Shown: positions 38,763 to 63,460 of the stretch, piece after piece | Layout of the letters: each line of letters begins with the position of its first letter | How positions within the stretch are numbered: position 1 is the first letter of the stretch | DNA from: Methanobacteriota archaeon | GTDB taxonomy: Archaea; Thermoplasmatota; Poseidoniia; Poseidoniales; Thalassarchaeaceae | Length of the DNA: 64,000 nucleotides | Reading direction: 5' to 3' | Assembly (NCBI GenBank): GCA_028355015.1 | Contig: JAOMRN010000005.1 | Span: forward strand, 18,022-82,021 | Program-made: the position numbers and the translations under genes | Notes under the pieces: model-generated | Told to the model about the DNA's origin: nothing | What the model saw: the letters and a program-made list of their open reading frames with translations, nothing else | The model's database searches: none

Positions 38763-38800
38763 GTCTCTTACGCTACCTTCTAGATGCGGGTATCCATTAC

Positions 38801-38878
38801 GGTAGCCTCTGAAAGGGCGGACTGCAAACCCATTAATTCAGAGGATGCTAACTCTTGGATCTATGCAAAAACCAATTG
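38801..38878 (+). repeat. Arm repeat, hybrid GG-TA-arm site (TA 38803-04)
   Basis: GGTAGCCTCTGAAAGGGCGGACTGCAAACCCATTAATTCAG...CTAACTCTTGGATCTATGCAAAAACC. Confidence 0.9.
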
Positions 38879-38970
38879 TTAAGACTGTTAATCGATTATA
38901 CTATGATTGATTATATAATGATGACGTAGCAAGACCACAATATGAAATAACAATCCCTTTTGGTAAAATT

Positions 38971-40987: not shown

Positions 40988-41019
40988 TAATATATTTTTA
41001 CATTCAATCAAAACTTAAC

Positions 41020-41095
41020 GGTAGCCTCTGAAAGGGCGGATAGATAACCGATAAGTTCAGTGAAAATAGCAATGGGCTCGAGCAAAAACCCAATG
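41020..41095 (+). repeat. Arm repeat, hybrid GG-TA-arm site (TA 41022-23)
   Basis: GGTAGCCTCTGAAAGGGCGGATAGATAACCGATAAGTTCAG...CAATGGGCTCGAGCAAAAACCCAATG. Confidence 0.9.
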
Positions 41096-41320
41096 TTTTA
41101 CTCATAAAACTCTTAATCCATACTTAGTTCATATTACTCTACATCGCAGGTAAATGTATGCGTATCATAGCACCAATGATGATTTTGATAATGATGACCT
41201 CAACTTTAATCCGAATTAAAAATGCAAATATCTCGTAAGATACCAATTTTCATATGTAAAATACAAAATATTCTTTGTATATAGATAAATTTATATCAAA
41301 ATTTACATCCCACTACAAAC

Positions 41321-43647: not shown

Positions 43648-43667
43648 CAATGGGTACCCCCTGCGAC
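43648..43667. repeat. Short GGG-TA-CCC palindromic site
   Basis: CAATGGGTACCCCCTGCGAC, between the hypothetical gene and hsdM. Confidence 0.6.
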
Positions 43668-46380: not shown

Positions 46381-48689
46381 CAAGCGGAATGAACGAATCC
46401 GAAACGTGTGACACATACATCACACCAGCAGTTCAAGACTCAGGGTGGAAACCAAGCAATCGTTGTATCATTCGTCGTGAGTTCTCAATCACAGCAGGGC
46501 GGATACAGGGCCCAGGGCAGAGAGGAAGTCCGTTGCGGGCTGATTATGTACTTGTTCATCGATATAAGAAACTGGCAATTATTGAGGCAAAGAAATGGGA
46601 TCTCTCGCTGACTGAAGGTGTTCAACAAGCCAAGGATTACGCACAAAGGATGCATGTTCGATTCACCTACGCATCAAACGGGCAAGGTTTCTGGGAAATC
46701 GATATGCTCACAGGTGAAGAGAAGGAATTGGCAATTTCAGAATTTCCAACCCCTGAAGAGTTGTGGGAAAGAACGTACGAAAGTGATGACGAATGGCGAG
46801 ACAAATTCTCTGAAGTTCCATTTGAAGACAGGGGTGGCACATGGACTCCAAGGTATTACCAAGACAATGCAGTTGAAGCCGCATTGAAAGCCATTGGCGA
46901 TGGCAGTGACCGAATTTTACTGACACTTGCTACGGGAACAGGAAAGACATCTATCGCATTCCAAATCGCTTGGAAGTTGTTCCAGACGAGATGGAATCGT
47001 AGTGATGGAATTTCTCGACGTCCTCGAATCCTTTTCCTTGCAGATAGAAACATCTTGGCGAATCAAGCCTACAACTCGTTTTCTGCCTTTGGCGAACATG
47101 CGATGGAGCGAATTACCCCTGCTGGTATTCGAAAGAAGGGGCGAGTTCCAAAGAATGCTAACATCTTCTTCACTATCTTCCAGACTTTCATGAGTGGGCC
47201 TGATGATACTGCTTTCTTTGGAGAATATCCAGAGGATTTCTTTGACATGGTTATCGTGGATGAGTGCCACCGAGGAGGGGCAAATGATGAGAGTACTTGG
47301 AGGGAGATTCTGGAATACTTCTCACCTGCCGTTCAACTGGGTTTGACAGCAACTCCCAAGCGTGACGACAACGTTGACACATACGCCTACTTCGGTGAAC
47401 CAGTTTACACATATTCCCTCAAGGATGGGATAAGTGATGGATTCTTGACCCCATTTAGAGTCCGCAAGATTTCGACGACTAGCGATTCATACGTGTATTC
47501 TTCTGATGATAATGTCCTTCAAGGCGAGGTAGAAGAAGGAAAAGAATACACTGAGAAGGATTTTGCTCGTGGTGTAATTGAGATTCCAGCACGAATGAAA
47601 TACCGTGTTGAGAGGTTCATGGAATTCATCGATCAATCTGAGAAGACAATCATTTTCTGTCCTTTAGAAAGACATGCAGCAGCTGTTCGTGACCTCATAA
47701 ACCAGTTGAAGAAAAGTACCGATCCGAACTATTGTGTTAGAGTCACATCAGGCGATGGTGAGTTGGGTGAAAAATACCTACGGGAATTCCAAGACAATGA
47801 GCGTTCAATTCCAACAATCCTCACCACCTCGAGAAAACTCTCAACTGGAGTTGATGCCAGAAATGTTCGCCATATCGTATTACTGAGGACAATCAAATCA
47901 ATGATTGAATTTAAGCAAATCATTGGACGAGGCACTCGTTTGTATGATGAAAAGTACTACTTTACAATACATGATTTCGTCAATGCTTCTGAAAAATTCC
48001 AAGATCCAGAATGGGATGGGGAGCCAGTCGAGCCAGAACCAACAGAACCACGTGAACCTCGTCCATCTCAGCCTAGGCCAGAAAGACCACCAAGACCTGA
48101 AGTCATCAGAATCAAGTTGTCTGATGGCAAGGAACGCTCAATACAACACATGGAGCAAACTCTATTCTATGGCCCTGATGGGAAACCAATGTCATCTTCT
48201 GAATTTATTCAGAGTATATTCGGTGTAACTCCTACTCTGTTCAAGGATGAAGAACATCTTAGAGAAATATGGAGTGACCCTGAAACTCGCAAAAAACTCA
48301 TGCGACAACTCTCCGAATCTGGGTTTACTAAGGAGCATATAGAGCAAGCGAAGAAGTTGATCTCAGCAGAACATAGTGATGTGTATGACGTTCTTTCATA
48401 CATCGCATATGCAACTCCAGTATCTACCCGTGAAGAAAGAGCATTAATGGCGGCAGACATGCTTATCGATGAATTTGAAGAAGATGAGAAACTGTTCCTC
48501 AAATTCGTATTAGGAGAATATGTCGATCATGGTGTTGAAGAATTGGATGTAGGAAAGCTCCCCGAGTTACTTCAACTCAAATATGGCGGTATGAACGAGG
48601 CCTTGAGCGTCTTTGGTGCTCCTGCAAAAATTAACGAAATGTTCGTTGGATTCCAGCGTCTGCTTTACACAAAGTCACAAACGGCCTAA
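46377..48689 (+). CDS. hsdR: Type I R-M restriction subunit (EcoAI/type IB-like)
   Basis: ADYVL...IEAK nuclease, PRYYQ, ATGTGKT, DECHR, GLTATP, QIIGRGTR. Confidence 0.95.
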   Translation: MTSGMNESETCDTYITPAVQDSGWKPSNRCIIRREFSITAGRIQGPGQRGSPLRADYVLVHRYKKLAIIEAKKWDLSLTEGVQQAKDYAQRMHVRFTYASNGQGFWEIDMLTGEEKELAISEFPTPEELWERTYESDDEWRDKFSEVPFEDRGGTWTPRYYQDNAVEAALKAIGDGSDRILLTLATGTGKTSIAFQIAWKLFQTRWNRSDGISRRPRILFLADRNILANQAYNSFSAFGEHAMERITPAGIRKKGRVPKNANIFFTIFQTFMSGPDDTAFFGEYPEDFFDMVIVDECHRGGANDESTWREILEYFSPAVQLGLTATPKRDDNVDTYAYFGEPVYTYSLKDGISDGFLTPFRVRKISTTSDSYVYSSDDNVLQGEVEEGKEYTEKDFARGVIEIPARMKYRVERFMEFIDQSEKTIIFCPLERHAAAVRDLINQLKKSTDPNYCVRVTSGDGELGEKYLREFQDNERSIPTILTTSRKLSTGVDARNVRHIVLLRTIKSMIEFKQIIGRGTRLYDEKYYFTIHDFVNASEKFQDPEWDGEPVEPEPTEPREPRPSQPRPERPPRPEVIRIKLSDGKERSIQHMEQTLFYGPDGKPMSSSEFIQSIFGVTPTLFKDEEHLREIWSDPETRKKLMRQLSESGFTKEHIEQAKKLISAEHSDVYDVLSYIAYATPVSTREERALMAADMLIDEFEEDEKLFLKFVLGEYVDHGVEELDVGKLPELLQLKYGGMNEALSVFGAPAKINEMFVGFQRLLYTKSQTA

Positions 48690-51361: not shown

Positions 51362-51420
51362 TGAAACTGCTAACGTAGATATTATCGATCTAAGTACGGA
51401 TTAAGAGTTTTATGACTAAA

Positions 51421-51499
51421 TCAATGGGTTTCTGCTTAGACCCATGAGTTAGCATTTACTGAATTAATGGGTTTGCAGTCCATCCTTTCATAGGCTACC
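51421..51499 (-). repeat. Arm repeat, hybrid GG-TA-arm site (TA 51496-97)
   Basis: rc GGTAGCCTATGAAAGGATGGACTGCAAACCCATTAATTCAGTAAATGCTAACTCATGGGTCTAAGCAGAAACCCATTG. Confidence 0.9.
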
Positions 51500-51533
51500 A
51501 TTCCGATTATCCCTGATTGGATGGAAATATCGT

Positions 51534-51824
51534 TTACTCTTCTTCATTACTTGCAAAGGGGTTCTTTCCAGAAACCCACATCCAGATGATGAACAAAATC
51601 AGAATTAAAATCAGAATTGCAGTGATGAATGCTGTTCCATTTAGTCCAAAAAACTTTAATGAAGTGAAAAAAAGTATTGGCTGCATAATAGCAAGAAGGA
51701 GCAAGAATGGGGTGCTTTCCGTACTATCTCCCATAGAATGATATAATTTGTTTTCGAACATAAATGATTGGGCGGCATTGCCCTTGTTGATGCGAAAATC
51801 TATCACTCTACCTATGTGATACAA
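51534..51824 (-). CDS. Small membrane protein (start uncertain, probably MGDSTES)
   Basis: Two hydrophobic helices. Confidence 0.45.
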   Translation of the reverse strand: MYHIGRVIDFRINKGNAAQSFMFENKLYHSMGDSTESTPFLLLLAIMQPILFFTSLKFFGLNGTAFITAILILILILFIIWMWVSGKNPFASNEEE

Positions 51825-52093
51825 CGTGATAATGGGTACAGTTCATTCTGTTTCGTCTTGATCAGATTTAGCATGGCCAAGTATCTGCCACCATTCTTTT
51901 TTCAACACCTTTCTCTGGTAGGCCGGTTTAATGAATAGAACGTAAGGAATATACAGAAAGCCTAGTATACCGATAATAACAGATAAAAATTCAAAAATTT
52001 CATTTAAAATATCCTCAACCCCACCCTGTAGTTTTCCTTATACACATATTATTTAATTAATGATAGATTGTATATACTTTACCCCGATACAAC

Positions 52094-52157
52094 GGTAGGC
52101 ACTGAAAGCGCTGACTGCCAACGCATTAATTCAGTAATTTCTAACTCTTGGGCCTAA
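52094..52157 (+). repeat. Arm repeat, hybrid GG-TA-arm site (TA 52096-97)
   Basis: GGTAGGCACTGAAAGCGCTGACTGCCAACGCATTAATTCAGTAATTTCTAACTCTTGGGCCTAA. Confidence 0.85.
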
Positions 52158-52804
52158 ATGCCCATCCCATCCACATCGTCGGATTTCCTGATTTTGTCGA
52201 TCTCCCCTTTGTCAAACCAGAATGATCCGCAGTCGCCGCATCCATCGAGAATCAGTGTAGCTTTACCGCCTTCGTAATTGTGCTTGGATGCCTCGTACGC
52301 GATTAATGGTATGCCAATCACCAGCATGATTGCCAGATCCACCAGATCAGATCCGCCGCCAGCAGTACCCTCCATAGGATTGGAGGGTTCATAATACACA
52401 TTTATTTCGACCATCTTTCCTTCGCAAGTCGGGCAATCGAGGTCACAGGATACTCCTTCTTCCAGCAGTGATTCGAGAGTTCTCACCTTGTCCGAATTGG
52501 CCTCGAGTATCGCCCCTATGTTGTTGGCGTTAAGCAAGGAACCCTTGCATTTCTTGCATTCGTAGTACCCAATTTTGTCGGTCTTGAGTCTATCAATGAG
52601 TCCTCCGGTGTTCAGGATGGATCTATTGAATGAGGCATAGGATAGCTGCCCGCACCCCTTGGGGCATTGAAGATTCTTAATATCTTGAAATTCATCGGGT
52701 TCCCAATGAAAAACATCTTCGCAGTATGGACACTCATATTCCCCCTCTTCAGCCATTCCCAAATCGATAGATTCGGCGCATAACGGGCACTCAATCTCGA
52801 CCAT
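52154..52804 (-). CDS. Zinc-ribbon (zf-TFIIB-like) membrane protein
   Basis: CPLC..CPYC, CPKGC..CKKCKG, CPTC..CGDCGSFWFDKGEI; one TM. Confidence 0.65.
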   Translation of the reverse strand: MVEIECPLCAESIDLGMAEEGEYECPYCEDVFHWEPDEFQDIKNLQCPKGCGQLSYASFNRSILNTGGLIDRLKTDKIGYYECKKCKGSLLNANNIGAILEANSDKVRTLESLLEEGVSCDLDCPTCEGKMVEINVYYEPSNPMEGTAGGGSDLVDLAIMLVIGIPLIAYEASKHNYEGGKATLILDGCGDCGSFWFDKGEIDKIRKSDDVDGMGI

Positions 52805-52903
52805 GTTTCTAAAGCGGAAACTATGGGAGTATAATCCTTGACCCTACATGAGGCTACGCTTTCTACTACTGAGCGATGGACCTCCTTCCGCTTGTATGTG
52901 AAT

Positions 52904-52917
52904 CAAAGGGTACCCTC
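52904..52917. repeat. Short GGG-TA-CCC palindromic site
   Basis: CAAAGGGTACCCTC; a degenerate minus-strand arm (rc GTAGCCTCATGTAGGG) has its TA at 52855-56. Confidence 0.6.
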
Positions 52918-52974
52918 TCATAATACGCCTATACAGTGGGTGTAGAGAGGGTGTTGCATGGGTATACAGAGGTA

Positions 52975-53832
52975 TCAAGAACATTCAATTGCATCAATGA
53001 TTTGCTTCTGTATGTGTTCGTCATAAGCCGATGGATGGAGTTCTTTTTCTTTCGATTTGGTGTCAAAGTAACGCCCTGTTACGCCTTCCAGTGATGGATC
53101 GGTTGCAGCAAATACCGTTGATTGTGAAGCTTTGTGAGCGCTCTTGCCACCATCACTTCGGAAAAATAATTTGAAAAATGGCATCATAATTTTCATTGGA
53201 CCAGGAAGCCCCTTCGTTGTCAATGATTGTGTCATTGAAGTTGATGCTCTTCCCGGAAAAACGATATTGACACTCACGTTCTCTAGCTCCAATCTTTTGG
53301 AGAGGGTAATCGACATGGCTTCCAAGATGCTTTTTGAGTGAGTGTATGTCATCAAACCTCTGAATTGTTTTTCAGCCTGCAGATTTGTTGGATCAATGGC
53401 GGCGGGTTTATCTCCACCACTGGTGTTCAATACTCGAGGTGATGGCGAGGATTTTAACTTCGGCAAGAGGGCATGGGTTAGGTTCCAAGGTGCAACCACA
53501 TTCACTGCAAAATGCATCTCTAATCCATCTTCGTTGTGTTTGAGTGTGTTTCCAAGATAGCCTGCATTGTTGATGAGGACATCAATTTTGGAAACGCTTT
53601 GATTGATTGCATTTGCTAATTGCTCAACTCCATTCTTTGTTGAAACATCCCCAACAATAAACTCAATTTCAGAATTTCCTGATTCTTTGATGATGGTTTC
53701 AGTAGCATTTTCTCCACGCTCAGTATTTCTTCCAACGAGAATCACATGCGCTCCGAGTTTCGCAATTTCAAGAGCAGTGTAATATCCAATTCCAGAGGTT
53801 GCTCCAGTGATTACAACTGTTTTTTCTGACAT
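52975..53832 (-). CDS. Short-chain dehydrogenase/reductase (retinol-DH-like)
   Basis: VITGATSGIG, LINNAG, YTHSK. Confidence 0.88.
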   Translation of the reverse strand: MSEKTVVITGATSGIGYYTALEIAKLGAHVILVGRNTERGENATETIIKESGNSEIEFIVGDVSTKNGVEQLANAINQSVSKIDVLINNAGYLGNTLKHNEDGLEMHFAVNVVAPWNLTHALLPKLKSSPSPRVLNTSGGDKPAAIDPTNLQAEKQFRGLMTYTHSKSILEAMSITLSKRLELENVSVNIVFPGRASTSMTQSLTTKGLPGPMKIMMPFFKLFFRSDGGKSAHKASQSTVFAATDPSLEGVTGRYFDTKSKEKELHPSAYDEHIQKQIIDAIECS

Positions 53833-53872
53833 CAATTTCGGCATACAAGTTTCACCATTTTTCAGTAGAATC

Positions 53873-55129
53873 TCAAGCCGTACTGTTTGACGCAAATACT
53901 TGTGAGGGATTATTTGCCCAGATCGCTTCAAGGAAAGCATCAACTCTATCGTTGATTGGAGTTCTAGCAAAGTTTGTTTCAACATGGTCTCCTTCGGGAT
54001 CAAAATCCAAGAGATGAGGTGAATTCGGTTGCGCATCAATCGTCTGGCGTAAATTGTCATACATCCAACGGCAATTACTCAAGTTAGCTTCTTCAGCTGT
54101 AGGGATTGTTGGCAATTTCCCTCCACAGGCAGGATCGAGTTCACCGATAATGAACATAATTGGCACCTCAGTAAATCCATTTCGAATCATCGCTTCAGGA
54201 TAGAGACCATAGCCCCAGTAATCAAACCCGACTTTCTCCATACCATCGTTACGTAGATCGCCTCCGTTGAAAGGATAGGGGTCAACACCGACATAGATGT
54301 CAAACATTTCAAAGATCCGGGGTGGATCAAATGTCCATGAATCAGCCACGACTGCAGTAAGGTAGATGTCTTCCTGCCAGTATGCAACGGCTACATTCCA
54401 TACGCCAATTGAGCCAGCACTTGTTCCATGAGCGAAAACCTGACTGGTTGGGTAGTTGGCTACGGTGTAATCCATTGCGGCCATCGTAGCCTGCAAACCA
54501 TTTACTTCTCGAAGAACACCATCATAGGATGAATTCGGGTTGTTCGGATATGGGTCGCCACGACCGGCATAATTGTCATGGTCGCAGAGTGATACCAATA
54601 AAACTCGATATCCATCGATAATTCGCCGTGTAAGAGTTGAACTCATCAGTTCGTCGTTATTGTTGTGTGTGTTTCCAATCAAATGAAGGTCGATCAGTTT
54701 GTCAAAGGATTCCTCATGGTTCCAAGTATTCTGAGTGATGGTCTTGACGGTTTGGTATGTCTGGTTTTCATCAAACCACCCATAGCCACCTCCGTGAAGA
54801 TAGGTCCAGAGAGGAGCCTCAATACCGGGATTATTGATTGGCTCCATGACGAAAAAGGTGTAATGTCCAGACAGTCCACATGTGTATGCTTCATTCCGAT
54901 AAAAGCTAATTTCAGCACTTGTGTTGTTGTCCAACTCGAGTATCCTTGATTCGACTAGTTTGATATGTTCAGTCGTTCGTTCGACCAGTGGAATTTCGAT
55001 TTCATCATTTGAATTTTCAAGTACTTCACCGTCAGACGAACCTTCAGACTCACCAAAACATCCCGCTAGAGAAATTGAGATGAAAAAAAGTACCATGAGT
55101 AAAGCGTTTGGTTTGGTTGATTTTTTCAT
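53873..55129 (-). CDS. Lipoprotein alpha/beta hydrolase
   Basis: Lipobox LAGC, YLHGGG, HGTSAGS nucleophile elbow. Confidence 0.65.
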   Translation of the reverse strand: MKKSTKPNALLMVLFFISISLAGCFGESEGSSDGEVLENSNDEIEIPLVERTTEHIKLVESRILELDNNTSAEISFYRNEAYTCGLSGHYTFFVMEPINNPGIEAPLWTYLHGGGYGWFDENQTYQTVKTITQNTWNHEESFDKLIDLHLIGNTHNNNDELMSSTLTRRIIDGYRVLLVSLCDHDNYAGRGDPYPNNPNSSYDGVLREVNGLQATMAAMDYTVANYPTSQVFAHGTSAGSIGVWNVAVAYWQEDIYLTAVVADSWTFDPPRIFEMFDIYVGVDPYPFNGGDLRNDGMEKVGFDYWGYGLYPEAMIRNGFTEVPIMFIIGELDPACGGKLPTIPTAEEANLSNCRWMYDNLRQTIDAQPNSPHLLDFDPEGDHVETNFARTPINDRVDAFLEAIWANNPSQVFASNSTA

Positions 55130-55575
55130 CAGATATCACCTCCATCTTCTGCTGTGACTTGGGTAGAGCATGGAGTTTCGAGAGACTGAATCGATGGATT
55201 GGAAGACCTATGAACAACCCACTCAAACATGGATTCTAAACTTGGGCGAAGCGCCATACCGTCATTTGTTAGAGCGTATTCAACACGTGTTCCTTGGGAA
55301 TCTGTGATCTCTTTTCGAGTAACAAGTCCATTCTCTTCAAGTTCATTCAGCCGTCGAGAGAGCGTCGTAGCAGAACTTTCTACTCTCCTTTCAATTTCTG
55401 AAAATCTCATCGGCTCCTTATCTGATTTGAGTACAACCAAGGTATGGAGCATCGTTGATTTTGAAAGCAAACGAAGCAGATGATCTACATCGTCGCGTAG
55501 ATTTGTTCGAAGAGCGTCTAATTCAGCGCTTTCAGCATCGTCCATGATCTCTTTGATTACGCTTCTGATTATCAA
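55129..55575 (-). CDS. HxlR-family winged-helix regulator
   Basis: MRFSEI...SATTLSRRLNELE..GLVTR...RVEYALT. Confidence 0.85.
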   Translation of the reverse strand: MIIRSVIKEIMDDAESAELDALRTNLRDDVDHLLRLLSKSTMLHTLVVLKSDKEPMRFSEIERRVESSATTLSRRLNELEENGLVTRKEITDSQGTRVEYALTNDGMALRPSLESMFEWVVHRSSNPSIQSLETPCSTQVTAEDGGDI

Positions 55576-55636
55576 GTAAGGGGTTTCAGGAATGTTAGTG
55601 CACTCACCAGTTCCGACATATCATTTCCATGAAATC

Positions 55637-55748
55637 GCAAGGGTTCTTGGAACTCCCTTAAGACATTATGTAAGAGTACAATGGGTGTTCAGTCCCCCAG
55701 TACACTCGCTAGGCATTGAAAGGACGGATAGATAGCCGATAAGTTCAG
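55637..55748. repeat. Double-arm site: two arms back-to-back around CTAG (TA 55710-11)
   Basis: + arm GCTAGGCATTGAAAGGACGGATAGATAGCCGATAAGTTCAG; - arm rc CTAGCGAGTGTACTGGGGGACTGAACACCCATTG...TAAGGG...AACCCTTG, colinear with the consensus. Confidence 0.8.
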
Positions 55749-56281
55749 TCTGAGTATTTGATACCGGTTCCATAAGCGAACACCTCAACTCCTTTAACTC
55801 CCTTTTTGCTACTTTGTGGGGTCATATCCGCTGTATCTATTCTAACATTAATCACATCATCCCAACCAGCAGCTATTGCATTCTCTCTGAGCCTCTGCAT
55901 TACCTCTGCCCTACCGGTAGAAATAACTTTCTGAAATATCGTGATTGAGCCACCAAATAAATTATTGAACCAACCAATTAGGAGATGCCAATGGCTGGGT
56001 CCAAAGACACCACTGGCATAAACGAGACCGGAATCAGAAACATTATCTCTGTAGCCACCATCAATTGTTGATAGAGGATCTTTCCCTCGTAATTTTCTTG
56101 TTTCACTCTCTCTTCTGTTTACATCTTCTACCATATTGTCAATATTCTTTCCACTAGTAATCATACCCCAAACAAAAACAAATGGGTATGAAAGACCAAA
56201 AACTGTCCAAATTAATGAAAATATTAGGAATGGGGCCACCAATATAAACAGAATGTAATATATCTCGAACTCTATAGCCAT
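55745..56281 (-). CDS. YbjQ/UPF0145-like protein with N-terminal TM
   Basis: NLFGG, GRAEVMQRL, INVRIDT, VEVFAYGTGI. Confidence 0.75.
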   Translation of the reverse strand: MAIEFEIYYILFILVAPFLIFSLIWTVFGLSYPFVFVWGMITSGKNIDNMVEDVNRRESETRKLRGKDPLSTIDGGYRDNVSDSGLVYASGVFGPSHWHLLIGWFNNLFGGSITIFQKVISTGRAEVMQRLRENAIAAGWDDVINVRIDTADMTPQSSKKGVKGVEVFAYGTGIKYSD

Positions 56282-56294
56282 TGAAAGACCTCTT

Positions 56295-56630
56295 TCACTC
56301 GTATTTGACTGCAGTTCCATAGGCAAATAGCTCTGCAGCACCAGCAGTAATAGCGGATGTTGCAAATCTAACATTGACTACTGCTGTTGCATCAAGCGTC
56401 ATTGCATCTGCAACCATTCTTGCTACGGCTTCTTGACGTGCTTCTTGGAGGAGTTCAGTATACTGTGTTAACTCTCCTCCAACAATGTTCTTGAAAAGAG
56501 CAAAAATATCTTTTCCTACATGCTTAGCTCTGACTGTTGATCCACTAACTACCCCTAGCGTCTCAGTAATTTTTTTCCCTGGTATTGTCTCAGTATTAAC
56601 TACTAACACTCCATTGACTACTTGTTCCAT
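56295..56630 (-). CDS. YbjQ/UPF0145 family protein
   Basis: GSTVRAKHVGKD..A..KNIVGGEL..YTELL.EAR.EA, ELFAYGTAV. Confidence 0.9.
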   Translation of the reverse strand: MEQVVNGVLVVNTETIPGKKITETLGVVSGSTVRAKHVGKDIFALFKNIVGGELTQYTELLQEARQEAVARMVADAMTLDATAVVNVRFATSAITAGAAELFAYGTAVKYE

Positions 56631-56674
56631 AATGGTGCGTACAATAGGAATCACTTCAATATAGTGTACTATGT

Positions 56675-57307
56675 TTAACGAAATCCTGAAGGTATATCGA
56701 TGGTAGTTTCAGGTTTTGATTTACTAGCTACGAGTACTAATAGAGCTAGCAGGAATCCATTACATAATGCAATCTGACCTACCCCCATTATCATTGAGAA
56801 CTGGTTTATCAAGTCGGGAATCATAGTCCCTCCTGCTTCCTGACCATAGTCATCAATTGGTGTGAAACCTATTTCGGACATTCTCCACATCATCCATATG
56901 CCACCAACAAAATTTACAGCTATCCATAAACCAACTGCTTTAATTCCTGCTTCTCTATTTGTCCATAATAGAAATGCACTGAATGTACCTATGATAGCCA
57001 AAAGTCCGCTGTGAAATGCTGTCCATCCGATGAAACCCATCATTTGATCGAAATAATCCTGCATATCCTCCCAAGCTATTTTTCCCTCTTCCCATTCTTG
57101 TTTTTCCTCTTCAGTACCATCTTCAGGATATTCTTCTATCTCCTCCCATTCCGTATCTGTTAATTGAGAAACGAGTATCGGTGTGGCAGCTGATAATAAT
57201 GCGTTTAAAACGTATAAAATAGACATTATTACCATGAAAATGGCCAATCCTTTCAACCACCAAGGAGATGGCTCGCTGATTGGGGTGTATGGCTTCTCTG
57301 TGCGCAC
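56675..57307 (-). CDS. Hypothetical membrane protein
   Basis: 4 TM with acidic loop. Confidence 0.65.
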   Translation of the reverse strand: MRTEKPYTPISEPSPWWLKGLAIFMVIMSILYVLNALLSAATPILVSQLTDTEWEEIEEYPEDGTEEEKQEWEEGKIAWEDMQDYFDQMMGFIGWTAFHSGLLAIIGTFSAFLLWTNREAGIKAVGLWIAVNFVGGIWMMWRMSEIGFTPIDDYGQEAGGTMIPDLINQFSMIMGVGQIALCNGFLLALLVLVASKSKPETTIDIPSGFR

Positions 57308-57405
57308 ATAATAATCGCCAATATGCCTTCATATGAACCTAGTCACGAATTAATGTTTACAACCCCATCAGACCACATATGAGCGTGAGGGGACCCTTTG
57401 TCTGG

Positions 57406-57870
57406 TTATTCCCTAACGTATAGCTTGTAATCTCGAATATGTTTCAGTTGGTGTAGAATTCGTTTAAATTCCAATGAAAATATCATCCAAGAGACCATGC
57501 TCAATCTACTGATTAGTACGTTTAACGAACTCAAAAATCCCGGAGTTATCGATCTTTCAAAACCCGCCTTTTCTAGTACAGATTGAAGTCGAGCGTCTCG
57601 TGTATATGCGAAAAGACGTCCATTGCCACATTTTTCTAACAATTTATGTGATATTCCTTTACCTCTGTGAGTTGGGTCAACTACCAGGCTATTGATTTCA
57701 AATCCTCTCCACCTATTTGTCTTGATTGCATGAGCAATCGGATTGTCATCACCGTCATAGATAATTATGGTTTTTTTGTTAATTCTTGCTAGAGACGGAG
57801 GCCTTAGATCCAACTCTTGACGGAACATTTCCTTCAACCAAATAATGGCATCCATTCTAACCCCTACCAC
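57406..57870 (-). CDS. GNAT acetyltransferase
   Basis: EINSLVVDPTHRGKGI motif A. Confidence 0.75.
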   Translation of the reverse strand: MVGVRMDAIIWLKEMFRQELDLRPPSLARINKKTIIIYDGDDNPIAHAIKTNRWRGFEINSLVVDPTHRGKGISHKLLEKCGNGRLFAYTRDARLQSVLEKAGFERSITPGFLSSLNVLISRLSMVSWMIFSLEFKRILHQLKHIRDYKLYVRE

Positions 57871-58015
57871 TAATCCGTCAGCTACCCCCCTTCATCATGT
57901 ATGCGGAAGTTTGGACCCCATGTATACGGGCATCAAACCCCCCCTACCCAATTAGACGTATAAATCTACTATGGGTGCCCCAATCATTTTTCACGTATCG
58001 GAAATTCGGTATGGC

Positions 58016-58600
58016 ATGAGGGAGTCCCATACAACACTGGCAAAGGTATTCCACTGGGGTTTCATAATCCTCTATGCATATGGGATATTCAAGCAAGTGG
58101 ATGATATATCTCAGCTAGAGGATTCAGGTTTACTCGCCTTCGAGGTGGCCTTTGCAAGTATTTTCCTAGTCATTGTAATGGTTCGATATTATTACATGAG
58201 GAAATTTCAGACGTTTCTTGGCGCTGACAAACCCGTCCCAGTGACCCATAGATATCTCGCGAAATCGATTCATACCTCCATGTATCTTTGCCTGATTCTT
58301 CTCCCACTATCTGGCTTGTTGATAGCAGTTTTGTTCTCACAAGGAATCTCTGAGGGTCCGATGCAGGACTTCGCGCTTGCTGTGCATGAGTTCTCAGCCG
58401 ATCTCAGTTATATCCTCATAGCAATACATGTCGGGGCGGCAATGTGGTCACGAATCAAGGGAGAAGGAGTTTGGACTTCCATGGTCCCAATTTGGAAGGA
58501 AGGGGGAGCCTCAAGAAATGAAACAATTTCAAGATTGTCGCTTATGGAAAATGATTTTTTCAATAAGATAGAGAAAATTTTCTTTTCTTCGAAGGAATAA
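58016..58600 (+). CDS. Cytochrome b561 / Ni-hydrogenase b-type cytochrome family
   Basis: AKVFHW, IHTSMY..L...PLSG, VHE, IHVGAA heme His ligands. Confidence 0.8.
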   Translation: MRESHTTLAKVFHWGFIILYAYGIFKQVDDISQLEDSGLLAFEVAFASIFLVIVMVRYYYMRKFQTFLGADKPVPVTHRYLAKSIHTSMYLCLILLPLSGLLIAVLFSQGISEGPMQDFALAVHEFSADLSYILIAIHVGAAMWSRIKGEGVWTSMVPIWKEGGASRNETISRLSLMENDFFNKIEKIFFSSKE

Positions 58601-58635
58601 GCACTGGCCGATCATAAGCCCAAGGTTGTTTGTAA

Positions 58636-58712
58636 CAAAGGGGGCCCCTTACGATTACGAGTGGTCGCATGGGTACCCATGCGACACCCGTCGTTTCAAA
58701 AGGGGACCATTC
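58636..58712. repeat. Three tandem short GGG-NN-CC(C) sites at 30-31 bp spacing; central one a perfect 22-bp palindrome
   Basis: CAAAGGGGGCCCCTT, GTCGCATGGGTACCCATGCGAC (58664-58685), CAAAAGGGGACCATT. Confidence 0.65.
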
Positions 58713-58717
58713 GAAAG

Positions 58718-58936
58718 TCACTCTTTCTTCATATCATAAAGAAGCCGTATCGCCACAATTAGAATTGCACAAAGAATACCGATTTGGCCACCATATACCC
58801 CTGCGATTTCATAATTGTCAGTAATCCCACTTTGCGGAAACCATTCTGATAATGGCTGGGCAAGGAGCGCCCCTACAATCAGGCCTATCGGCGGAAGCAA
58901 AATCAACACAAGCGGGATGAAGTATCTGCTCCTCAA
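58718..58936 (-). CDS. Small 2-TM membrane protein
   Basis: TTG start overlapping the upstream TGA; MRSRYFIPLVLILL... Confidence 0.5.
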   Translation of the reverse strand: MRSRYFIPLVLILLPPIGLIVGALLAQPLSEWFPQSGITDNYEIAGVYGGQIGILCAILIVAIRLLYDMKKE

Positions 58937-59154
58937 AATGATCCCTCCGGACTTGAATTTTTCAATCCCAAACCTACTATTAATCCGATCAATCCAATTC
59001 CACATACTGCTTGAGATGCCAACATATAGAGTAGATTTATCGATTCGTAAGTTCCAATTTTATCAAGTTCATTCGAAAAATAGAACATGGATATCAGCCC
59101 CACAATCATTGTGATGAATGAAATAATGATAATCACTAATTTCCTGTTCTCCAT
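58933..59154 (-). CDS. Small 2-TM membrane protein
   Basis: MENRKLVIIIISF... hydrophobic ORF. Confidence 0.5.
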   Translation of the reverse strand: MENRKLVIIIISFITMIVGLISMFYFSNELDKIGTYESINLLYMLASQAVCGIGLIGLIVGLGLKNSSPEGSF

Positions 59155-59203
59155 GATTAATCGAGATGAATACGATATATCAACAAACCGATTCGGATAA
59201 GTT

Positions 59204-59281
59204 GCAAGGGTCTATCCGAATACCCATTGAAACGGAAACTGAATTACAAAGGGCTTTCAATGCGTCCTTCGATAGGCTACC
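59204..59281 (-). repeat. Arm repeat (variant B), hybrid GG-TA-arm site (TA 59278-79)
   Basis: rc GGTAGCCTATCGAAGGACGCATTGAAAGCCCTTTGTAATTCAG...CAATGGGTATTCGGATAGACCCTTGC. Confidence 0.8.
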
Positions 59282-59412
59282 CTCGTGTTCAAGTTGAATA
59301 CAAAGGTTCCCCATCATTCATTAGTTGAAATGTAGTCCACTTTTATCACTCGAATCGTTTCCTTAGGGGTTTCAGTAGATCTATTTATGTATGATGGCTA
59401 AATACGCTATTT

Positions 59413-60972
59413 ATGCCATACACACTATCTATGCAACCTCCAGATAATCAATTCAAAGGACTTGCAAAGAATGGGATGGAATGCGGCCATTGCATATGTG
59501 AACTGATAGATAACTCAATTGCCGCGAAGGACTCTGATTTTAAGATTCAAATTCACTTATTAGCTAATCAAGATGAAAAGCTGCTCGATGTTTTCATAAT
59601 GGATGCAAGCGGAGGAATGGATTTTGATACCCTGAAAACTGCATTGCCTCTAGGATCTTCGCCAGGTGATAATCAGCTCAATGAACATGGTTTTGGTTTG
59701 AAAAATGCTTTAGCTACATTGAGTAACAAAAATGTATTGCCGTGGGAATTAATTACCAAGAAAGGTGCAGAAATTTCCAAAGTTAGCGGCCCATTTAGTT
59801 CGAATATGGAAATTTACAGCACTCAGATGGGAGATGCAGTTACGTTGAATGAGGAGGATTGGATGCGTTTCTATAATGAAATCTCAACGATGGTTAAATT
59901 CACTCTTACTAAGAGGTTTTTCAACACACTTAAGGCAAAACATGGCGCACATGCTACAGATCCTTCTACTTTGAGATATTATTTGATTGAAGAGATTGCT
60001 ATGAAATATGCGAATTATTTGACAGGAGATGGCTCCGGATCGATTTCTTTAACCTACCTCACTGATGTGCACGAGATTTTACCATTGATACCTCCAATAG
60101 CAGGAGGACATAAGGATTTGACTTGTATAGTAACAAAGGCGGGAGGAGCTGAGGAGCAGTTACAAATGCGTTATAAATGGGGTGATATTGATCCATTGTT
60201 ACAGAGCGAATGTGTTCAAAGTAAATTAAACGGAGCAATTGAAAAGAAACCTTCGAAAAAATATTTCAAAGCACCCGGAACGATTAATACACAGGGATTT
60301 AGTGTGGTTTTAGGTAGGCGTACAATCATCCCTACTAAATTCAATGATGTTTGGCCCACAGGGGCGACTGATGAAGAAGGTGATCCCGAATACCTCAAAT
60401 CCCACAATAATTATAATCATTATTTAGGTCAGTTGGTTATCAAAACTTTCCCTGAAAAAACACTCACTACTGTGAATAATAAAATTGGGGTTGATCCTGA
60501 TGATACAAATTGGCATAAAGTATTCTCTGCCCTCGGTGCAGATGCAGATACTAAGCCCATAGGGTCCTCAAATGAAGCTTGGAGTGAAAAGCAATACGAA
60601 GACGCCCTCGTCGCTAAAAATCAAGGTGTCCCTGGAATTGAGATGGTTTCTAGACAAGATACAGTGTGGCCCTCAGGAGTAAGAATGGATTGTATTGTAA
60701 AACAAAATAATGGTCATATTACAGTGTATGAATTAAAAGTTAAGAAAGTAGGTACTTTAGATCTCTATCAGTTGAAGATGTATTGGGATGGATTAGTTGA
60801 TCAAGGAGACACACCAACGACAGGGGTTTTAGCAGGTCATGAGTTTATACCTCAAATTGACCAAATGATTACAAAAATAAACAGTATGGAGGACGAACAG
60901 GGCAATAATTACAACATTGAAAAGAAGTTCCTTTCAACTCCTCCAGCAGAAGGCGGTTTAGGATTAAATTAG
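59413..60972 (+). CDS. GHKL (MORC/HATPase_c_3-like) ATPase fused to a C-terminal PD-(D/E)xK nuclease
   Basis: ELIDNSIAA, D.SGGM, NEHGFGLKNA; C-terminal E...RMD...VYELK...YQLKMY. Confidence 0.75.
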   Translation: MPYTLSMQPPDNQFKGLAKNGMECGHCICELIDNSIAAKDSDFKIQIHLLANQDEKLLDVFIMDASGGMDFDTLKTALPLGSSPGDNQLNEHGFGLKNALATLSNKNVLPWELITKKGAEISKVSGPFSSNMEIYSTQMGDAVTLNEEDWMRFYNEISTMVKFTLTKRFFNTLKAKHGAHATDPSTLRYYLIEEIAMKYANYLTGDGSGSISLTYLTDVHEILPLIPPIAGGHKDLTCIVTKAGGAEEQLQMRYKWGDIDPLLQSECVQSKLNGAIEKKPSKKYFKAPGTINTQGFSVVLGRRTIIPTKFNDVWPTGATDEEGDPEYLKSHNNYNHYLGQLVIKTFPEKTLTTVNNKIGVDPDDTNWHKVFSALGADADTKPIGSSNEAWSEKQYEDALVAKNQGVPGIEMVSRQDTVWPSGVRMDCIVKQNNGHITVYELKVKKVGTLDLYQLKMYWDGLVDQGDTPTTGVLAGHEFIPQIDQMITKINSMEDEQGNNYNIEKKFLSTPPAEGGLGLN

Positions 60973-60994
60973 TGTATCTTTTCTACTCAACGTG

Positions 60995-61212
60995 TCAGCT
61001 CAGACCCATTAGTCAGTTAGTAGTGTATTAATGGGTAGCGATAAATTAGAGGGTTTCTGCTTAGGCCCATGAGTTAGCAATTGCTGAATTAATGGGTTAG
61101 CAGCCCGCCCTTTCAGAGGCTAGCGTTTGCACCGACCGACTGAAAGCCCTTCGGAAATCAAAACTCATTCCAATGGGTATTCGGATAAATCCTTACGAAA
61201 TATCTCAACTCG
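60995..61212. repeat. Double-arm site around CTAG (TA 61121-22) plus a partial extra arm
   Basis: - arm rc GCTAGCCTCTGAAAGGGCGGGCTGCTAACCCATTAATTCAG...CATGGGCCTAAGCAGAAACCC; + arm GCTAGCGTTTGCACCGACCGACTGAAAGCCCTT...CAATGGGTATTCGGATAAATCC; extra CCCATT...AATGGG unit 60995-61039. Confidence 0.85.
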
Positions 61213-61213
61213 T

Positions 61214-61462
61214 TTATTCGTTAGTTGAGATATTCTTCTTTCTTTTACGATTCCATTTCTTGATTCGAGGAAGTTGCCATTTGATAATTCCAGTCCAAAA
61301 AACGATTCCTAAGACCGCAGTTGCAACAAAATTGGTCACTCCTGGCTGATCGTTCCAATATCCTGTGTCGCCACTGAATGTTATCGCACCGAAATAAAAC
61401 GAAATACAAAATCCAAAGCCGAGATGAACCCCACGAAGAATAGTGTTCCAATTCCTTGCCAA
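61214..61462 (-). CDS. Small 2-TM protein with basic tail
   Basis: TTG start 2 nt after the upstream small gene; R..HL..G, FWTG..KWQ.PRI. Confidence 0.6.
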   Translation of the reverse strand: MARNWNTILRGVHLGFGFCISFYFGAITFSGDTGYWNDQPGVTNFVATAVLGIVFWTGIIKWQLPRIKKWNRKRKKNISTNE

Positions 61463-61464
61463 GT

Positions 61465-61584
61465 TTATTCCTCTTTTACACTCTCTTGATGTTCTTTCAA
61501 TTTAGTTTCAAATTCTTCTTGGGATAAACCATGCCAACCTATACACATTCCTGTTGGTGATCTACCGCATCCGCATTTACTCAT
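61465..61584 (-). CDS. Unannotated 39-aa CDGSH-like 3Cys-1His peptide
   Basis: AGGAG SD; MSKCGCGRSPTGMCIGWHGLSQEEFETKLKEHQESVKEE. Confidence 0.65.
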   Translation of the reverse strand: MSKCGCGRSPTGMCIGWHGLSQEEFETKLKEHQESVKEE

Positions 61585-61673
61585 AATATTCAGCTCCTAG
61601 TAAACATCGCACTTGACTTGAGTATTAAGGAGGAGAAGTCTCAATCTTGGCACTACAGTATCATGAGTGATAC

Positions 61674-62042
61674 TTGCAAGTTGATATACAGAGACTACTT
61701 AGTGACATTATGCAACCAGTAACTGAAGTGAAGCCAATATGCCTTCAATCCGCAGTAAAAAACACCATTGAAATGCTTGGGAAATCTCACGTGTTAGAGA
61801 TTCTCTATTTTCTGTCCAGGAGAGAAGGCCCAGTAAGATTCAATGAACTCAAGCGTGAGTTGTCGATTACTGCAACGACCCTGAGTCGAAGGTTGGACGA
61901 GTTTATTGAATTCGAACTTGTCACAAGAGAAGTTTTTGCTGAAGTTCCAGCACGTGTCGAGTATACATGTTCTATGAAAGGGAAAACACTTCGACCCGTT
62001 CTTCGGGATCTGTTTGAATGGGCTGAAAGTAATAATTCCTAG
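61674..62042 (+). CDS. HxlR-family winged-helix regulator
   Basis: VRFNELK...TATTLSRRL...LVTR.VFAEVPARVEY; start probably ATG 61709. Confidence 0.85.
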   Translation: MQVDIQRLLSDIMQPVTEVKPICLQSAVKNTIEMLGKSHVLEILYFLSRREGPVRFNELKRELSITATTLSRRLDEFIEFELVTREVFAEVPARVEYTCSMKGKTLRPVLRDLFEWAESNNS

Positions 62043-62054
62043 GGTGATTCAGAA

Positions 62055-62312
62055 TTGAAAGTAATATCAAAATTCAAAGTGACCAAAGGTTACGGAGTAT
62101 GGAAAAAAGAATTCGAGTCAAACGAGGCCATGAGGCTAAAAGATAACGTTAGAGTCTTAGCTTATGGTCATGACAACGAAAGTAACGTATACACGGTTGT
62201 CGAAATGAATTCAATTGAGGATAAGCGATTAAATGACCCCAGTATGATTAAATTTAGAGAAAAGGCGGGGGTTGATCACGCCTCGTTGGAAATCATAGCA
62301 TTGATTGAATAA
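62055..62312 (+). CDS. Small hypothetical alpha/beta protein
   Basis: F.VTKGY..WK..F...R...; REKAGV. Confidence 0.55.
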   Translation: MKVISKFKVTKGYGVWKKEFESNEAMRLKDNVRVLAYGHDNESNVYTVVEMNSIEDKRLNDPSMIKFREKAGVDHASLEIIALIE

Positions 62313-62431
62313 TGTTATTGATTAAATCTAAGCAGTCGGTACCCCTTATCACAGAGTTAGATGATAGATTGTCGCATCATTATGGGCAATGCCGCCCAAT
62401 CATTTATTTTCACATTGGTAGCACACATCAC

Positions 62432-63325
62432 ATGAGCAATCAACATGTATCAAATACTGGAGTTTCGGTTATTGGATTAGGAGCCATGGGTTCTGGCATC
62501 GCTCGCACCCTCATCGAAGGAGGCTGCACGGTATCCGTCTGGAATCGAAGCCGTGACAAGGTCGATGCCCTGGTCGCGAGGGGAGCAATCGGCTGCAATG
62601 AACCCAGCGATGCACTGAATGCTAATACTCATGTGATTGTGTGTGTGTCTGACTACGCAGTATGGCAGCGCATAATCCAAGAGAACGGTCTAGCAAGCCA
62701 CTTCGAAGATACCTGCATCATTCAGATGACGACGGGTACAATCGATGATGTGCAGACCCATGCCTCACTAATCCATGACAACGGTGGTCGTCTTATTGAG
62801 GGAGCCGTCATGTGCTACCCCCGTAACCTCGGAACGGAAGATGCAGCACTCCTATTGTCCGGTTCACCCGATGTGCTGGACGAGTGTGCTCCAATCTTGA
62901 GTGCTCTGGATGCAAATTGGACTAGTCTGGGAGAAGATATCAACCAGCCCTCGATTCTGAGTCGGTCATTGATGTCAGGGCTCACAGGGGCCTTGATGGG
63001 TCTGGTCAACGGTGCAGCTATTTGCCGGGCCGGGGGGGTTCCTCTGGACGTATTCATGAAATTCAACGAAGGTACTAATACCATCCTTCTCGCTGAGCAG
63101 AGGCGCCTTATAGAGGCGATTCGCGATGGATGCACCAAGGAGAACGAGGCCTCAATCAAGGCCTGGCGAGAGGGAAACCAGGCACTGAACTCTGTTGCAG
63201 CCTCGTTGGGAACTGACCTCACGCTGCAGAATGCAATCCAAGCGGTATTCCATGAAGGGGGGGAAAGAGGGCTCGACGAGCACGATCTCTCGGCCTTGGT
63301 TGATGTGTTTGATCCCGGCCATTAA
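62432..63325 (+). CDS. NAD(P)-dependent oxidoreductase (beta-hydroxyacid DH / imine-reductase-like)
   Basis: VSVIGLGAMGS, VWNRSR, VCVSDY; visibly GC-richer than flanks. Confidence 0.8.
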   Translation: MSNQHVSNTGVSVIGLGAMGSGIARTLIEGGCTVSVWNRSRDKVDALVARGAIGCNEPSDALNANTHVIVCVSDYAVWQRIIQENGLASHFEDTCIIQMTTGTIDDVQTHASLIHDNGGRLIEGAVMCYPRNLGTEDAALLLSGSPDVLDECAPILSALDANWTSLGEDINQPSILSRSLMSGLTGALMGLVNGAAICRAGGVPLDVFMKFNEGTNTILLAEQRRLIEAIRDGCTKENEASIKAWREGNQALNSVAASLGTDLTLQNAIQAVFHEGGERGLDEHDLSALVDVFDPGH

Positions 63326-63340
63326 CGGCTTCACAGCGTA

Positions 63341-63409
63341 TATGGGTTAGCAGTCAACCCTTTCAGAGGCTAGTCTTTGATATGGCCCACTGATAACTCA
63401 TTAATTCAG
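63341..63409. repeat. Double-arm site around CTAG (TA 63371-72)
   Basis: - arm rc CTAGCCTCTGAAAGGGTTGACTGCTAACCCAT; + arm GCTAGTCTTTGATATGGCCCACTGATAACTCATTAATTCAG (gap-free alignment to the 41-nt consensus). Confidence 0.85.
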
Positions 63410-63460
63410 TTTTGGTACTCTATTATTAATATTGAAATCTTGAAGATTCAGATTAATTAA

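Follow-up and report, generated by a model that had tools for sequence, protein, structure and literature searches.

Repeat arms ending at a palindromic TA are probably the termini of serine-recombinase mobile elements that stack gene cassettes in Marine Group II archaea

Few archaea in surface seawater are as abundant as those of Marine Group II, a group that is still uncultured. Here we describe a family of long DNA repeats, termed arms, in a 64,000-nt stretch of a genome from this group (GenBank assembly GCA_028355015.1, contig JAOMRN010000005.1, positions 18,022 to 82,021 of the forward strand; hereafter the window), whose closest loci by record title belong to the Poseidoniales and Thalassarchaeaceae. 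The arms end at a TA dinucleotide, sit at a fixed position and in a fixed orientation beside the gene of a serine recombinase, and delimit small gene modules that can share a single TA. We conclude that they are probably the terminal inverted repeats of serine-recombinase mobile elements, with crossover at a palindromic TA, which form stacks of cassettes in Marine Group II. The window is part of contig C15 of the source genome (G000; 1.5 Mb, 19 contigs, 84% complete).

Arms were collected with an nhmmer profile that was seeded with five copies and then iterated, as well as with R1, a sequence-only covariance model made from 61 diverse arms, which scored the whole window with filters off (for arms in its training alignment, R1 E-values follow by construction and give no independent support). 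They constitute one repeat family with sizes from ~85 to 190 nt. All subtypes in the 61-arm alignment follow a common plan: a GGGT-N10-ACCC box with some covarying inverted letters on its flanks, ~21 letters that vary, another box reading (A/T)GGG(T/C)T, and a tail comprising CAGT, a short G+C-rich stretch and (G/C)C, followed by the TA. The conserved GGGT, CCC and GGG boxes are nearly invariant columns of this alignment. The arms turned out to be longer than an initial annotation of the window had described, with a further head extension of ~54 nt (in two versions) in many copies and a length of up to ~182 nt in one subtype. The extension contains a TATA-like sequence, and genes often start few to tens of nt past it, reading away from the arm; in other arms, the head is lost to the 3' end of a gene running into the arm.

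The covariation check proposed together with the initial annotation gave no support for a folded structure. For 40 arms, RNAalifold returned -2.7 kcal/mol, 8 pairs and 1 compensatory pair, and the possible pairing in the middle of the arm differs among subtypes. A folded RNA or single-stranded DNA strand was rejected on these grounds and, given the near-null RNAalifold result, the arm is therefore treated as a putative double-stranded protein-binding site. As a side observation, genes that follow arm heads of the H2 version share an N-terminus beginning with MRIIAP (C4 14337-15479, C7 2776-3867, and loci L005, L006 and L020); the proteins, among them a cyclophilin, diverge further on. Possibly the arm head provides cassette genes with a common start or signal sequence.

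Within the source genome, the five-copy profile detected ~26 arms at E < 1e-3, and the iterated profile together with R1 detected 29-31. They are found in four places only: C15 56.8-83.3 kb (covering the final 25 kb of the window and continuing past its end), the entire small contigs C4 and C7, and C1 35.7-37.1 kb. Two genome samples, both mostly incomplete, were used to follow the arms and the recombinase further: 61 relatives for BLAST and for recombinase and transposase searches, and 151 Poseidoniales genomes for R1. R1 matched 122 of the 151 genomes (49/74, 1/2 and 71/74 by family) with 1-29 copies each, the source genome having the most. A BLAST search with a subtype-A arm, which sees this subtype only, found 11 of the 61 relatives; four of these are among the 12 relatives that carry a serine recombinase. 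In nearly complete genomes, R1 places the arms in small clusters that include tail-to-tail pairs, and such pairs are also present in G005, G008 and G034. Islands occur at the same chromosomal places in G000, G005 and G008 with different cassettes, and many arm matches lie at contig ends. An exact-pattern scan for subtype A returned Poseidoniales records only, plus one contig binned as Flavobacteriales. A viral origin was considered and rejected: the same kind of scan had no match in viral contigs, a search of the viral contig collection with the recombinase yielded distant relatives only (13 loci, none close, the best 41% identical over a part), and a 396-aa protein of the element on contig C1 had no relative there.

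Serine recombinases (PF00239) were found in 12 of the 61 relatives and fall into a ~262-aa class with 50-72% mutual identity and a 300-315-aa class adjoining type I restriction genes. Taking one genome per species, close relatives of the recombinase occupy 28 loci, all in Poseidoniales, and bacterial homologues are at most 36% identical. When we inspected the 24 loci with at least 300 nt of upstream DNA, 15 had an arm 80-214 nt upstream of the start codon, at distances forming three classes (~82, 190 and 205 nt), and 3 further loci had an upstream arm within 1.1 kb. The nearest upstream arm points its head toward the recombinase gene in 18 of 18 cases, and 8 of 9 nearest downstream arms are oriented the other way. 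All six loci of the 262-aa class among the relatives have arms within 2 kb according to a broader profile; no arms were detected at any of six bacterial homologue loci. Complete recombinase elements measure 2.6-5.8 kb, and one of them, in G034, has 182-nt terminal repeats with 88% identity. The source genome holds one intact recombinase gene (C1 41071-41970), which adjoins a C5 methyltransferase gene, lies 4 kb from the C1 arms, and encodes a protein 51-57% identical to the 262-aa class. The segment C1 36981-42083 (loci L016 and L033), next to the rpl15e region, reads arm, three genes, C5 cytosine methyltransferase, 299-aa serine recombinase and arm-like sequence, making it a candidate autonomous element of the source genome.

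All eight recombinases examined by Pfam carry the PF00239 catalytic domain (residues 14-167) at 102-120 bits compared to a cut-off of 23.3, with 107 bits for the C1 protein. Five of the eight additionally match the first half of the PF07508 Recombinase domain (profile ~3-54 of 102, 22-26 bits). No zinc-ribbon family and no coiled coil were detected in the eight proteins, nor an HTH_7-type C-terminal domain at E <= 0.01. The best NCBIfam matches (CcrB, XisF and CcrC) all stay far below their cut-offs, the best solved relatives by sequence are the catalytic domains of an invertase, the TP901-1 integrase and a resolvase, and relatives are named 'DNA invertase Pin-like' in databases. In metagenomes, relatives of the recombinase form at least 851 clusters that hardly differ in length, most of them from contigs of 1-5 kb; among the 120 metagenome relatives listed, length is uniformly 261-266 aa.

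To see what lies beyond the arms, their tails were surveyed in 79 copies from the source genome and from fetched loci of relatives, and the TA could be placed in 76. Twenty-two of these form 11 tail-to-tail pairs on one TA, including six pairs in the source genome, where the pair at window position 55710 is a seventh that only R1 and BLAST detected. Among the other 54 arms, 37 continue with CC past the TA, in most cases as CCC(A/T)T; on the opposite strand, GGG|TA adjoins the arm. This short motif was present outside the TA in 7 of 7 recombinase-proximal arms inspected, and both of its halves also meet in places that have no arm. The site GGGTACCC occurs 11 times in the genome, with 7 of the 11 in the islands that make up ~4% of it, and the copy at 58667-58682 forms the centre of a perfect 16-bp palindrome. 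The flanks of the G034 element, GCATGGG-TA and TA-CCCATTC, are the two halves of the palindrome that stands unoccupied at this position in the window. The letters beside the TA differ by site type (GC-TA-GC versus GG-TA-CC) and only TA is shared by all types, as would suit an overlap of 2 bp and not one of 6-8 bp.

Homology between elements likewise stops at the TA. The elements of G040 and G052, two different genera, encode recombinases that are 97% identical, and the elements are 91% identical over 1051 nt covering arm, spacer and gene; the alignment sets in precisely at the TA, beyond which the DNA is unrelated. In a cassette common to G000 and G005 (97% identity), homology begins at TA|CC. 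Public marine metagenomes add alternative partners at the same TAs. Logan contigs, aligned at 92% likeness, show unique DNA ending at 62341 that continues into an arm with GCCTC between (X1, X3) and an arm tail preceding DNA near 52911 (X1, X6, X7; with loose ends before 52903). Contig pieces also start at 52911, 61121 and 62340 (the last in X3 and X6) and end at 63373, and one putative joint would connect 58708 to 61121 on opposite strands. Because the alignments were made at 92% likeness and the arms are repeated, these joints lend weak support; most joints are arm-to-arm and hence ambiguous. Metagenome cover of 59520-60872 is 3-6 in X1 and none in X3, X6 and X7, which is not evidence of absence, and the summed depth at arms exceeds that of their flanks, which is not evidence of copy number.

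Against this background, we return to the three places in the window (55710, 61121 and 63371) at which the initial annotation had seen two divergent arms joined at a shared TA. The junctions exist, with CTAG at 55709-55712, 61120-61123 and 63370-63373, and at all three R1 finds a plus-strand and a minus-strand arm meeting tail to tail. The second arms score above chance: R1 gives 12 matches in the window at E <= 1e-5, five of them outside its training set, and no further match below E 0.05. Three of the six junction arms were in the training alignment (55625-55716, 61039-61130 and 61113-61204), and the other three were outside it. Even for the loosest arm (55631-55718), window 55613-55706 is 91% identical over 94 nt (BLAST E 1e-33) to the left terminal repeat of the element in G034, a genome of another genus than the source genome. 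The B-like arm that had been named for comparison at 59199-59284 is also real (Table 1), with 92% identity over 49 nt to the arm adjoining the recombinase at the G009 locus. The proposed mixing of subtypes holds at 61121, where A is joined to a B/F arm; at 55710 neither arm is subtype A, the pair being E and C. The inward-facing pairs 52096/55711, 55710/59279 and 61121/63372 bound modules as described, which are nevertheless not undivided, with arm-less junction TAs inside at 52911, 58674 and 62340. Together with a site at 43655, those at 52911 and 62340 (the last being CGG-TA-CCC) split the modules first recognized into smaller units.

The resemblance of these junctions to an attP or circle junction, as suggested in the initial annotation, is partly supported: the arms are inverted ends of serine-recombinase elements, and homology ends at the TA, while the junctions on the chromosome are abutting module ends. 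At each of the three, a cassette's right end meets the left end of its neighbour. An excised module would bear exactly such an arm-TA-arm junction. The pairing of unlike subtypes may have a simpler cause than a two-armed attachment site, because two identical arms would form a long perfect palindrome; it may thus reflect the instability of such palindromes. The parts of the array are compiled in Table 1.

Table 1 Arms, arm-less TA sites and recombinase remnant in the window (positions of the window unless a contig is named)
Feature	Position	Strand	Evidence	Remarks
Arm, subtype A; outer TA 38803-38804	38800..38880	-	R1 E 4e-20 (in training), nhmmer	First of array; adjoins conserved S8 peptidase gene, a flank also present in G005
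Arm, subtype C, H2 head extension; outer TA 41022-41023	41017..41100	-	R1 E 7.5e-17 (in training)	
GGGTACCC arm-less junction-type site, TA 43655-43656	43652..43659	.	Genome-wide pattern scan	Directly upstream of type I restriction-modification genes
Serine recombinase gene remnant, C-terminal ~56 aa	48698..48868	-	tblastn; 59% identity to 300-315 aa class	
Arm, subtype A; outer TA 51496-51497	51417..51501	+	R1 E 5e-26 (in training)	
Inverted truncated copy of 62340 cassette start, ending at GGG-TA 51837-51838	51756..51838	-	Inverted repeat I3, 50 nt, 90%	
Arm, subtype A; outer TA 52096-52097	52090..52157	-	R1 E 1e-12 (not in training)	Head replaced by 3' end of gene 52154-52804
GGGTACCC site, TA 52911-52912; arm-less junction in source genome	52908..52915	.	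Pattern scan, sequence	
Arm, subtype E, right end of module 52911-55711; junction 1, TA 55710-55711	55631..55718	+	R1 E 9e-11 (in training)	
Arm, subtype C; junction 1	55706..55753	-	R1 E 3e-8 (not in training)	Inner half replaced by 3' end of gene 55745-56374
Perfect 16-bp palindrome, TA 58674-58675; unoccupied	58667..58682	.	Sequence	Near-identical copy on contig C4 at 10949
Arm, subtype B; outer TA 59278-59279, then CCC	59199..59284	+	R1 E 1e-14 (in training)	
Partial arm, fused to next arm	60998..61036	+	R1 E 1e-5 (not in training)	
Arm, subtype A; junction 2, TA 61121-61122	61041..61129	+	R1 E 8e-25 (in training)	
Arm, subtype B/F; junction 2	61114..61195	-	R1 E 2e-14 (in training); iterated nhmmer	Subtype adjoining the recombinase gene in G040, G052 and G009
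CGG-TA-CCC site, TA 62340-62341; junction in population	62337..62344	.	Sequence, metagenome contigs	
Arm, subtype A; junction 3, TA 63371-63372	63336..63379	+	R1 E 3e-7 (not in training)	Head replaced by 3' end of gene 62312-63325
Truncated arm; junction 3; left end of AIM24 module	63364..63412	-	R1 E 5e-9 (not in training)	Right arm of the module just past the window (C15 82207-82284)

We propose that an autonomous element would consist of a TA, an arm, a spacer with a promoter, the gene of the ~262-residue recombinase, cargo (often a DNA methyltransferase), a second arm and a TA. The recombinase would act on the arm sites, cutting and rejoining at the central TA with the 2-bp overlap typical of serine recombinases. 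The arm end (..GGC|TA) would serve as 'P' half-site and the short GGG|TA as 'B' half-site; arm-TA-arm would then correspond to attP and also to the junction of an excised circle, GGG-TA-CCC to an unoccupied attB, and the two hybrids to attL and attR. All four site combinations are observed. The inner boxes of the arms would be accessory binding sites and may bind further subunits, as in res sites. New modules would land on the TA of a resident site, so that modules would stack end to end with single TAs shared, and because a palindromic TA allows joining either way, mixed cassette orientations would be explained as well. The window holds a stack of this kind, with about a dozen recombinase-less cassettes, among them HxlR regulators with oxidoreductases and a type I restriction system with a recombinase remnant. 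These cassettes may pass through circular intermediates and would be mobilized in trans, the recombinase of contig C1 being one possible source of activity.

Several points weigh against this reading. Arms are far more common than the recombinase (122 of 151 versus 12 of 61 genomes, in different samples of mostly incomplete genomes), and therefore most arms would be relics or moved in trans, or else serve a host function. The window itself holds a recombinase remnant only, the intact gene being on another contig, and the arm-like sequence upstream of that gene (C1 ~42012-42083), which by eye has GGG-TA outside and boxes inside, is not significant by R1 (E 0.4) or by BLAST. A module's left arm frequently differs in subtype from its right arm, also in 2-3 of the 6 complete recombinase elements, and the recombinase lacks both the zinc ribbon and the coiled coil of large serine integrases, the proteins on which the analogy to att sites is based. 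For the G034 element, no empty site was identified: its left flank is conserved in many genomes, the neighbouring genes differ, and no clean filled/empty pair emerged. A comparison of G008 with G000 at the TIM gene yielded no such pair either, the two being too diverged (71%). Finally, a TA on both sides is also expected from a TA-duplicating transposase, and the explanation as a whole is built on sequence comparison, from which we infer the circles and the catalysis.

The excess of arms over recombinases could point to host intergenic repeats, either promoter or terminator modules or sequences resembling repetitive extragenic palindromes (REPs) and bacterial interspersed mosaic elements (BIMEs). 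These would be bound by a host protein, with cassettes shuffled by homologous recombination between repeats of 85-190 nt and recombinase elements merely carrying or exploiting the arms. The location of arms at gene ends and starts, with a TATA-like head extension and genes starting few nt past it, would fit this picture, as would hybrid-looking arm contigs in metagenomes (joint 52108-55725) and the pairs of unlike subtypes, which recall the Y/Z REP pairs of BIMEs. However, where elements or cassettes are homologous, the homology breaks off at the arm's terminal TA and not inside the arm, the flank has a conserved GGG|TA motif of its own, arm-less GGG-TA-CCC sites behave as junctions, and arms are confined to islands rather than spread genome-wide. 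The minimal folding signal (-2.7 kcal/mol, one covarying pair) argues in the same direction, and the absence of any match to the REP-associated tyrosine transposase family Y1/RAYT (PF01797) in the source genome, which is 84% complete and was the one genome searched, counts against REPs and BIMEs. We consider host repeats unlikely. Another possible source of flanking TAs, non-autonomous TA-duplicating transposons in the style of IS630/Tc1-mariner, whose long inverted repeats hold several binding sites, would require a DDE transposase outside these assemblies and would make the serine recombinase cargo or a resolvase. Every element has a TA on both sides and long terminal inverted repeats with repeated boxes, as in IS630/Tc1-mariner, and the CTAG context and copies without genes between, reminiscent of miniature inverted-repeat transposable elements, would agree with this. 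Yet DDE_3 was found in none of the 61 relatives (5 of 14 control genomes were positive), neighbouring elements share one TA instead of having a pair each, and the recombinase gene lies at a fixed distance and orientation to an arm in 15 of 24 loci; we give this explanation a low probability.

A further possibility is an inversion switch similar to Hin, Gin or Pin, in which the recombinase flips segments between inverted arms at fixed sites and thereby changes the expressed genes. Modules bounded by inverted arms, the 'Pin-like' database names, the solved invertase and TP901-1 integrase catalytic domains among the best relatives, and the inverted copy of a cassette start that ends at a TA (51837) are all compatible with such a switch, and a palindromic TA in any case leads one to expect inversion. 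As an additional activity inversion is quite plausible, but insertion is left unexplained: the same unit of arm and recombinase is present in unrelated flanks in two genera, islands at the same place differ in their cassettes among G000, G005 and G008, and the HTH_7-type C-terminal domain is missing from the Pfam results. As a full account, an inversion switch is thus improbable. Least probable, and in our estimate very much so, is an integron-like or Xer/pdif-like platform operated by a tyrosine recombinase (host XerA or IntI). Such a platform is brought to mind by an array of small cassettes split by structured ~100-nt repeats and by a tyrosine recombinase 1.4 kb from an arm pair in G008. 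Against it, the single PF00589 match of the source genome is on another contig (C12), the G008 protein scores 32 bits compared to the cut-off of 265 for integron integrases (NCBIfam integrase_gron), the 61-arm alignment contains no GTTRRRY/RYYYAAC core, arms occur in both orientations, and the letters flanking the TA vary by site type, which is unsuited to a 6-8 bp overlap. The G008 locus (L019 14336-15328 on contig C52) encodes a 330-aa XerA-like tyrosine recombinase with a coiled-coil neighbour, with the arm pair at the contig end, and is probably a separate integrated element. Regarding palindrome-associated transposable elements derived from IS200/IS605, none of the 61 relatives had a TnpB (PF07282) match over the cut-off.

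The cargo of the window includes a complete type I restriction-modification operon (hsdM, hsdS, hsdR; 43760-48689) within one arm-bounded module, with a GGGTACCC site before it and the serine recombinase remnant after it; in G005, a similar restriction operon has an intact 309-aa recombinase between arms. HxlR regulators recur as cargo (window 55129-55575 and 61674-62042, L014 539-883, L022 4342-4671), each adjoining an oxidoreductase (a short-chain dehydrogenase, an NAD-binding dehydrogenase or an aldo-keto reductase), which suggests portable redox-sensing pairs of regulator and enzyme. A module with a single gene (59413-60972) encodes a protein of 519 aa that has an HATPase_c_3 domain and, in its C-terminal part, a weak match to a NucS-like nuclease; PADLOC gave no match for this protein; across 18 cargo proteins, the sole PADLOC match was the methyltransferase adjoining the G034 recombinase. 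The 804-aa protein of 48947-51361 has an N-terminal fascin/beta-trefoil-like domain, and its gene contains internal DNA repeats (families D4, D7 and D8) with periods of ~125 and ~1275 nt. On the minus strand, the open frames 53873-55129 and 52975-54060 overlap by ~190 nt and the 418-aa product belongs to no family; the start of one of the two is therefore probably miscalled.

If the arms are recombinase-element termini as we propose, they offer a testable machine for the flexible genome of Marine Group II, comprising a short recombinase, defined sites and a defined crossover point. This would explain why assemblies break at islands, where many arm matches lie at contig ends, and how restriction systems and small redox-regulator cassettes spread between genera. 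Builders of recombinase tools could likewise take an interest in a serine recombinase of 262 residues that has long, specific sites. We further advance, as a tentative suggestion that has somewhat more against it than for it, that the minimal ~262-aa recombinase, by recognizing the long multi-box arms and exchanging DNA at the palindromic TA, represents a third gene-cassette platform beside integrons and Xer/pdif, one that could insert, excise and invert promoter-carrying cassettes and would thereby build the hypervariable islands. A literature search found no work pairing Marine Group II with a serine recombinase, and Poseidoniales were paired with integrons only in unrelated work.

Among known systems, integron arrays resemble the islands in having cassettes of one to few genes split by imperfectly palindromic repeats of ~60-140 nt, content that is hypervariable among close relatives, and repeats that are alike within an array. 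In contrast to integrons, we found no IntI, attI or R'/R'' core, repeats and genes lie in both orientations, each arm has a promoter-like head, and a conserved folded strand is unsupported. The pdif modules of Acinetobacter plasmids are likewise stacked gene modules with alternating site orientation and without a recombinase of their own. Their sites are 28 bp long with a 6-bp spacer and are used by the host tyrosine recombinases XerC/D, whereas the sites described here are long, TA-centred and linked to a serine recombinase. Tn3/gamma-delta res sites and Hin/Gin share the serine catalytic domain and several inverted boxes with varied spacing, like res subsites I-III, and the crossover would be at the central 2-bp step as well. 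Their resolvases and invertases have ~180-200 aa and a C-terminal HTH_7-type domain, which is lacking here, and where those sites serve internal resolution or delimit a fixed invertible segment, the arms lie at the termini of mobile modules.

There is also a likeness to transposons and islands of large serine recombinases, exemplified by Tn4451 TnpX, Tn5397 TndX, SCCmec CcrAB and the phage serine integrases. Shared traits are a resolvase-type catalytic domain followed by the start of a Recombinase domain, a dinucleotide on both sides, imperfect inverted ends resembling attP halves, and tandem stacking. Large serine integrases comprise ~450-700 aa, with PF07508 plus a C-terminal part of zinc ribbon and coiled coil, and use half-sites of ~25 nt. 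The ~262-aa recombinase falls outside this definition in length and in its C-terminal parts, with no zinc ribbon or coiled coil detected by Pfam, and the ends are 85-190 nt long with several boxes. Further differences are the palindromic TA centre, the many recombinase-less cassettes and the archaeal host. A serine-recombinase mobile element already reported from archaea is the IS607 family (as mentioned in PMC6563490). Its TnpA is described in PMC6188088 as having an N-terminal DNA-binding domain and leaving neither inverted repeats nor duplications. Judged by that description, the elements presented here differ in their N-terminal catalytic domain, their long inverted ends and the TA on both sides, and NCBIfam transpos_IS607 scores of 27-38 bits, compared to a cut-off of 110, place the recombinase outside the family, in which a MerR-like DNA-binding domain precedes the catalytic domain. 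In the Poseidoniales themselves, small (~4.6 kb) Charybdis elements with methyltransferase cargo and integrated copies carrying an 'integrase/recombinase' are outlined in a preprint (bioRxiv 10.1101/2025.08.03.668216); the likeness as outlined there lies in small size and methyltransferase cargo, and a link to the recombinase elements is not supported by the viral-contig searches with arms, recombinase and C1 protein described above. A review (PMC8371274) remarks, in the passage concerned, that serine recombinases have been seen in archaeal transposons and never fully investigated. Taken together, the finding is best filed as an order-wide variant of the serine-recombinase mobile elements, one that builds cassette arrays.

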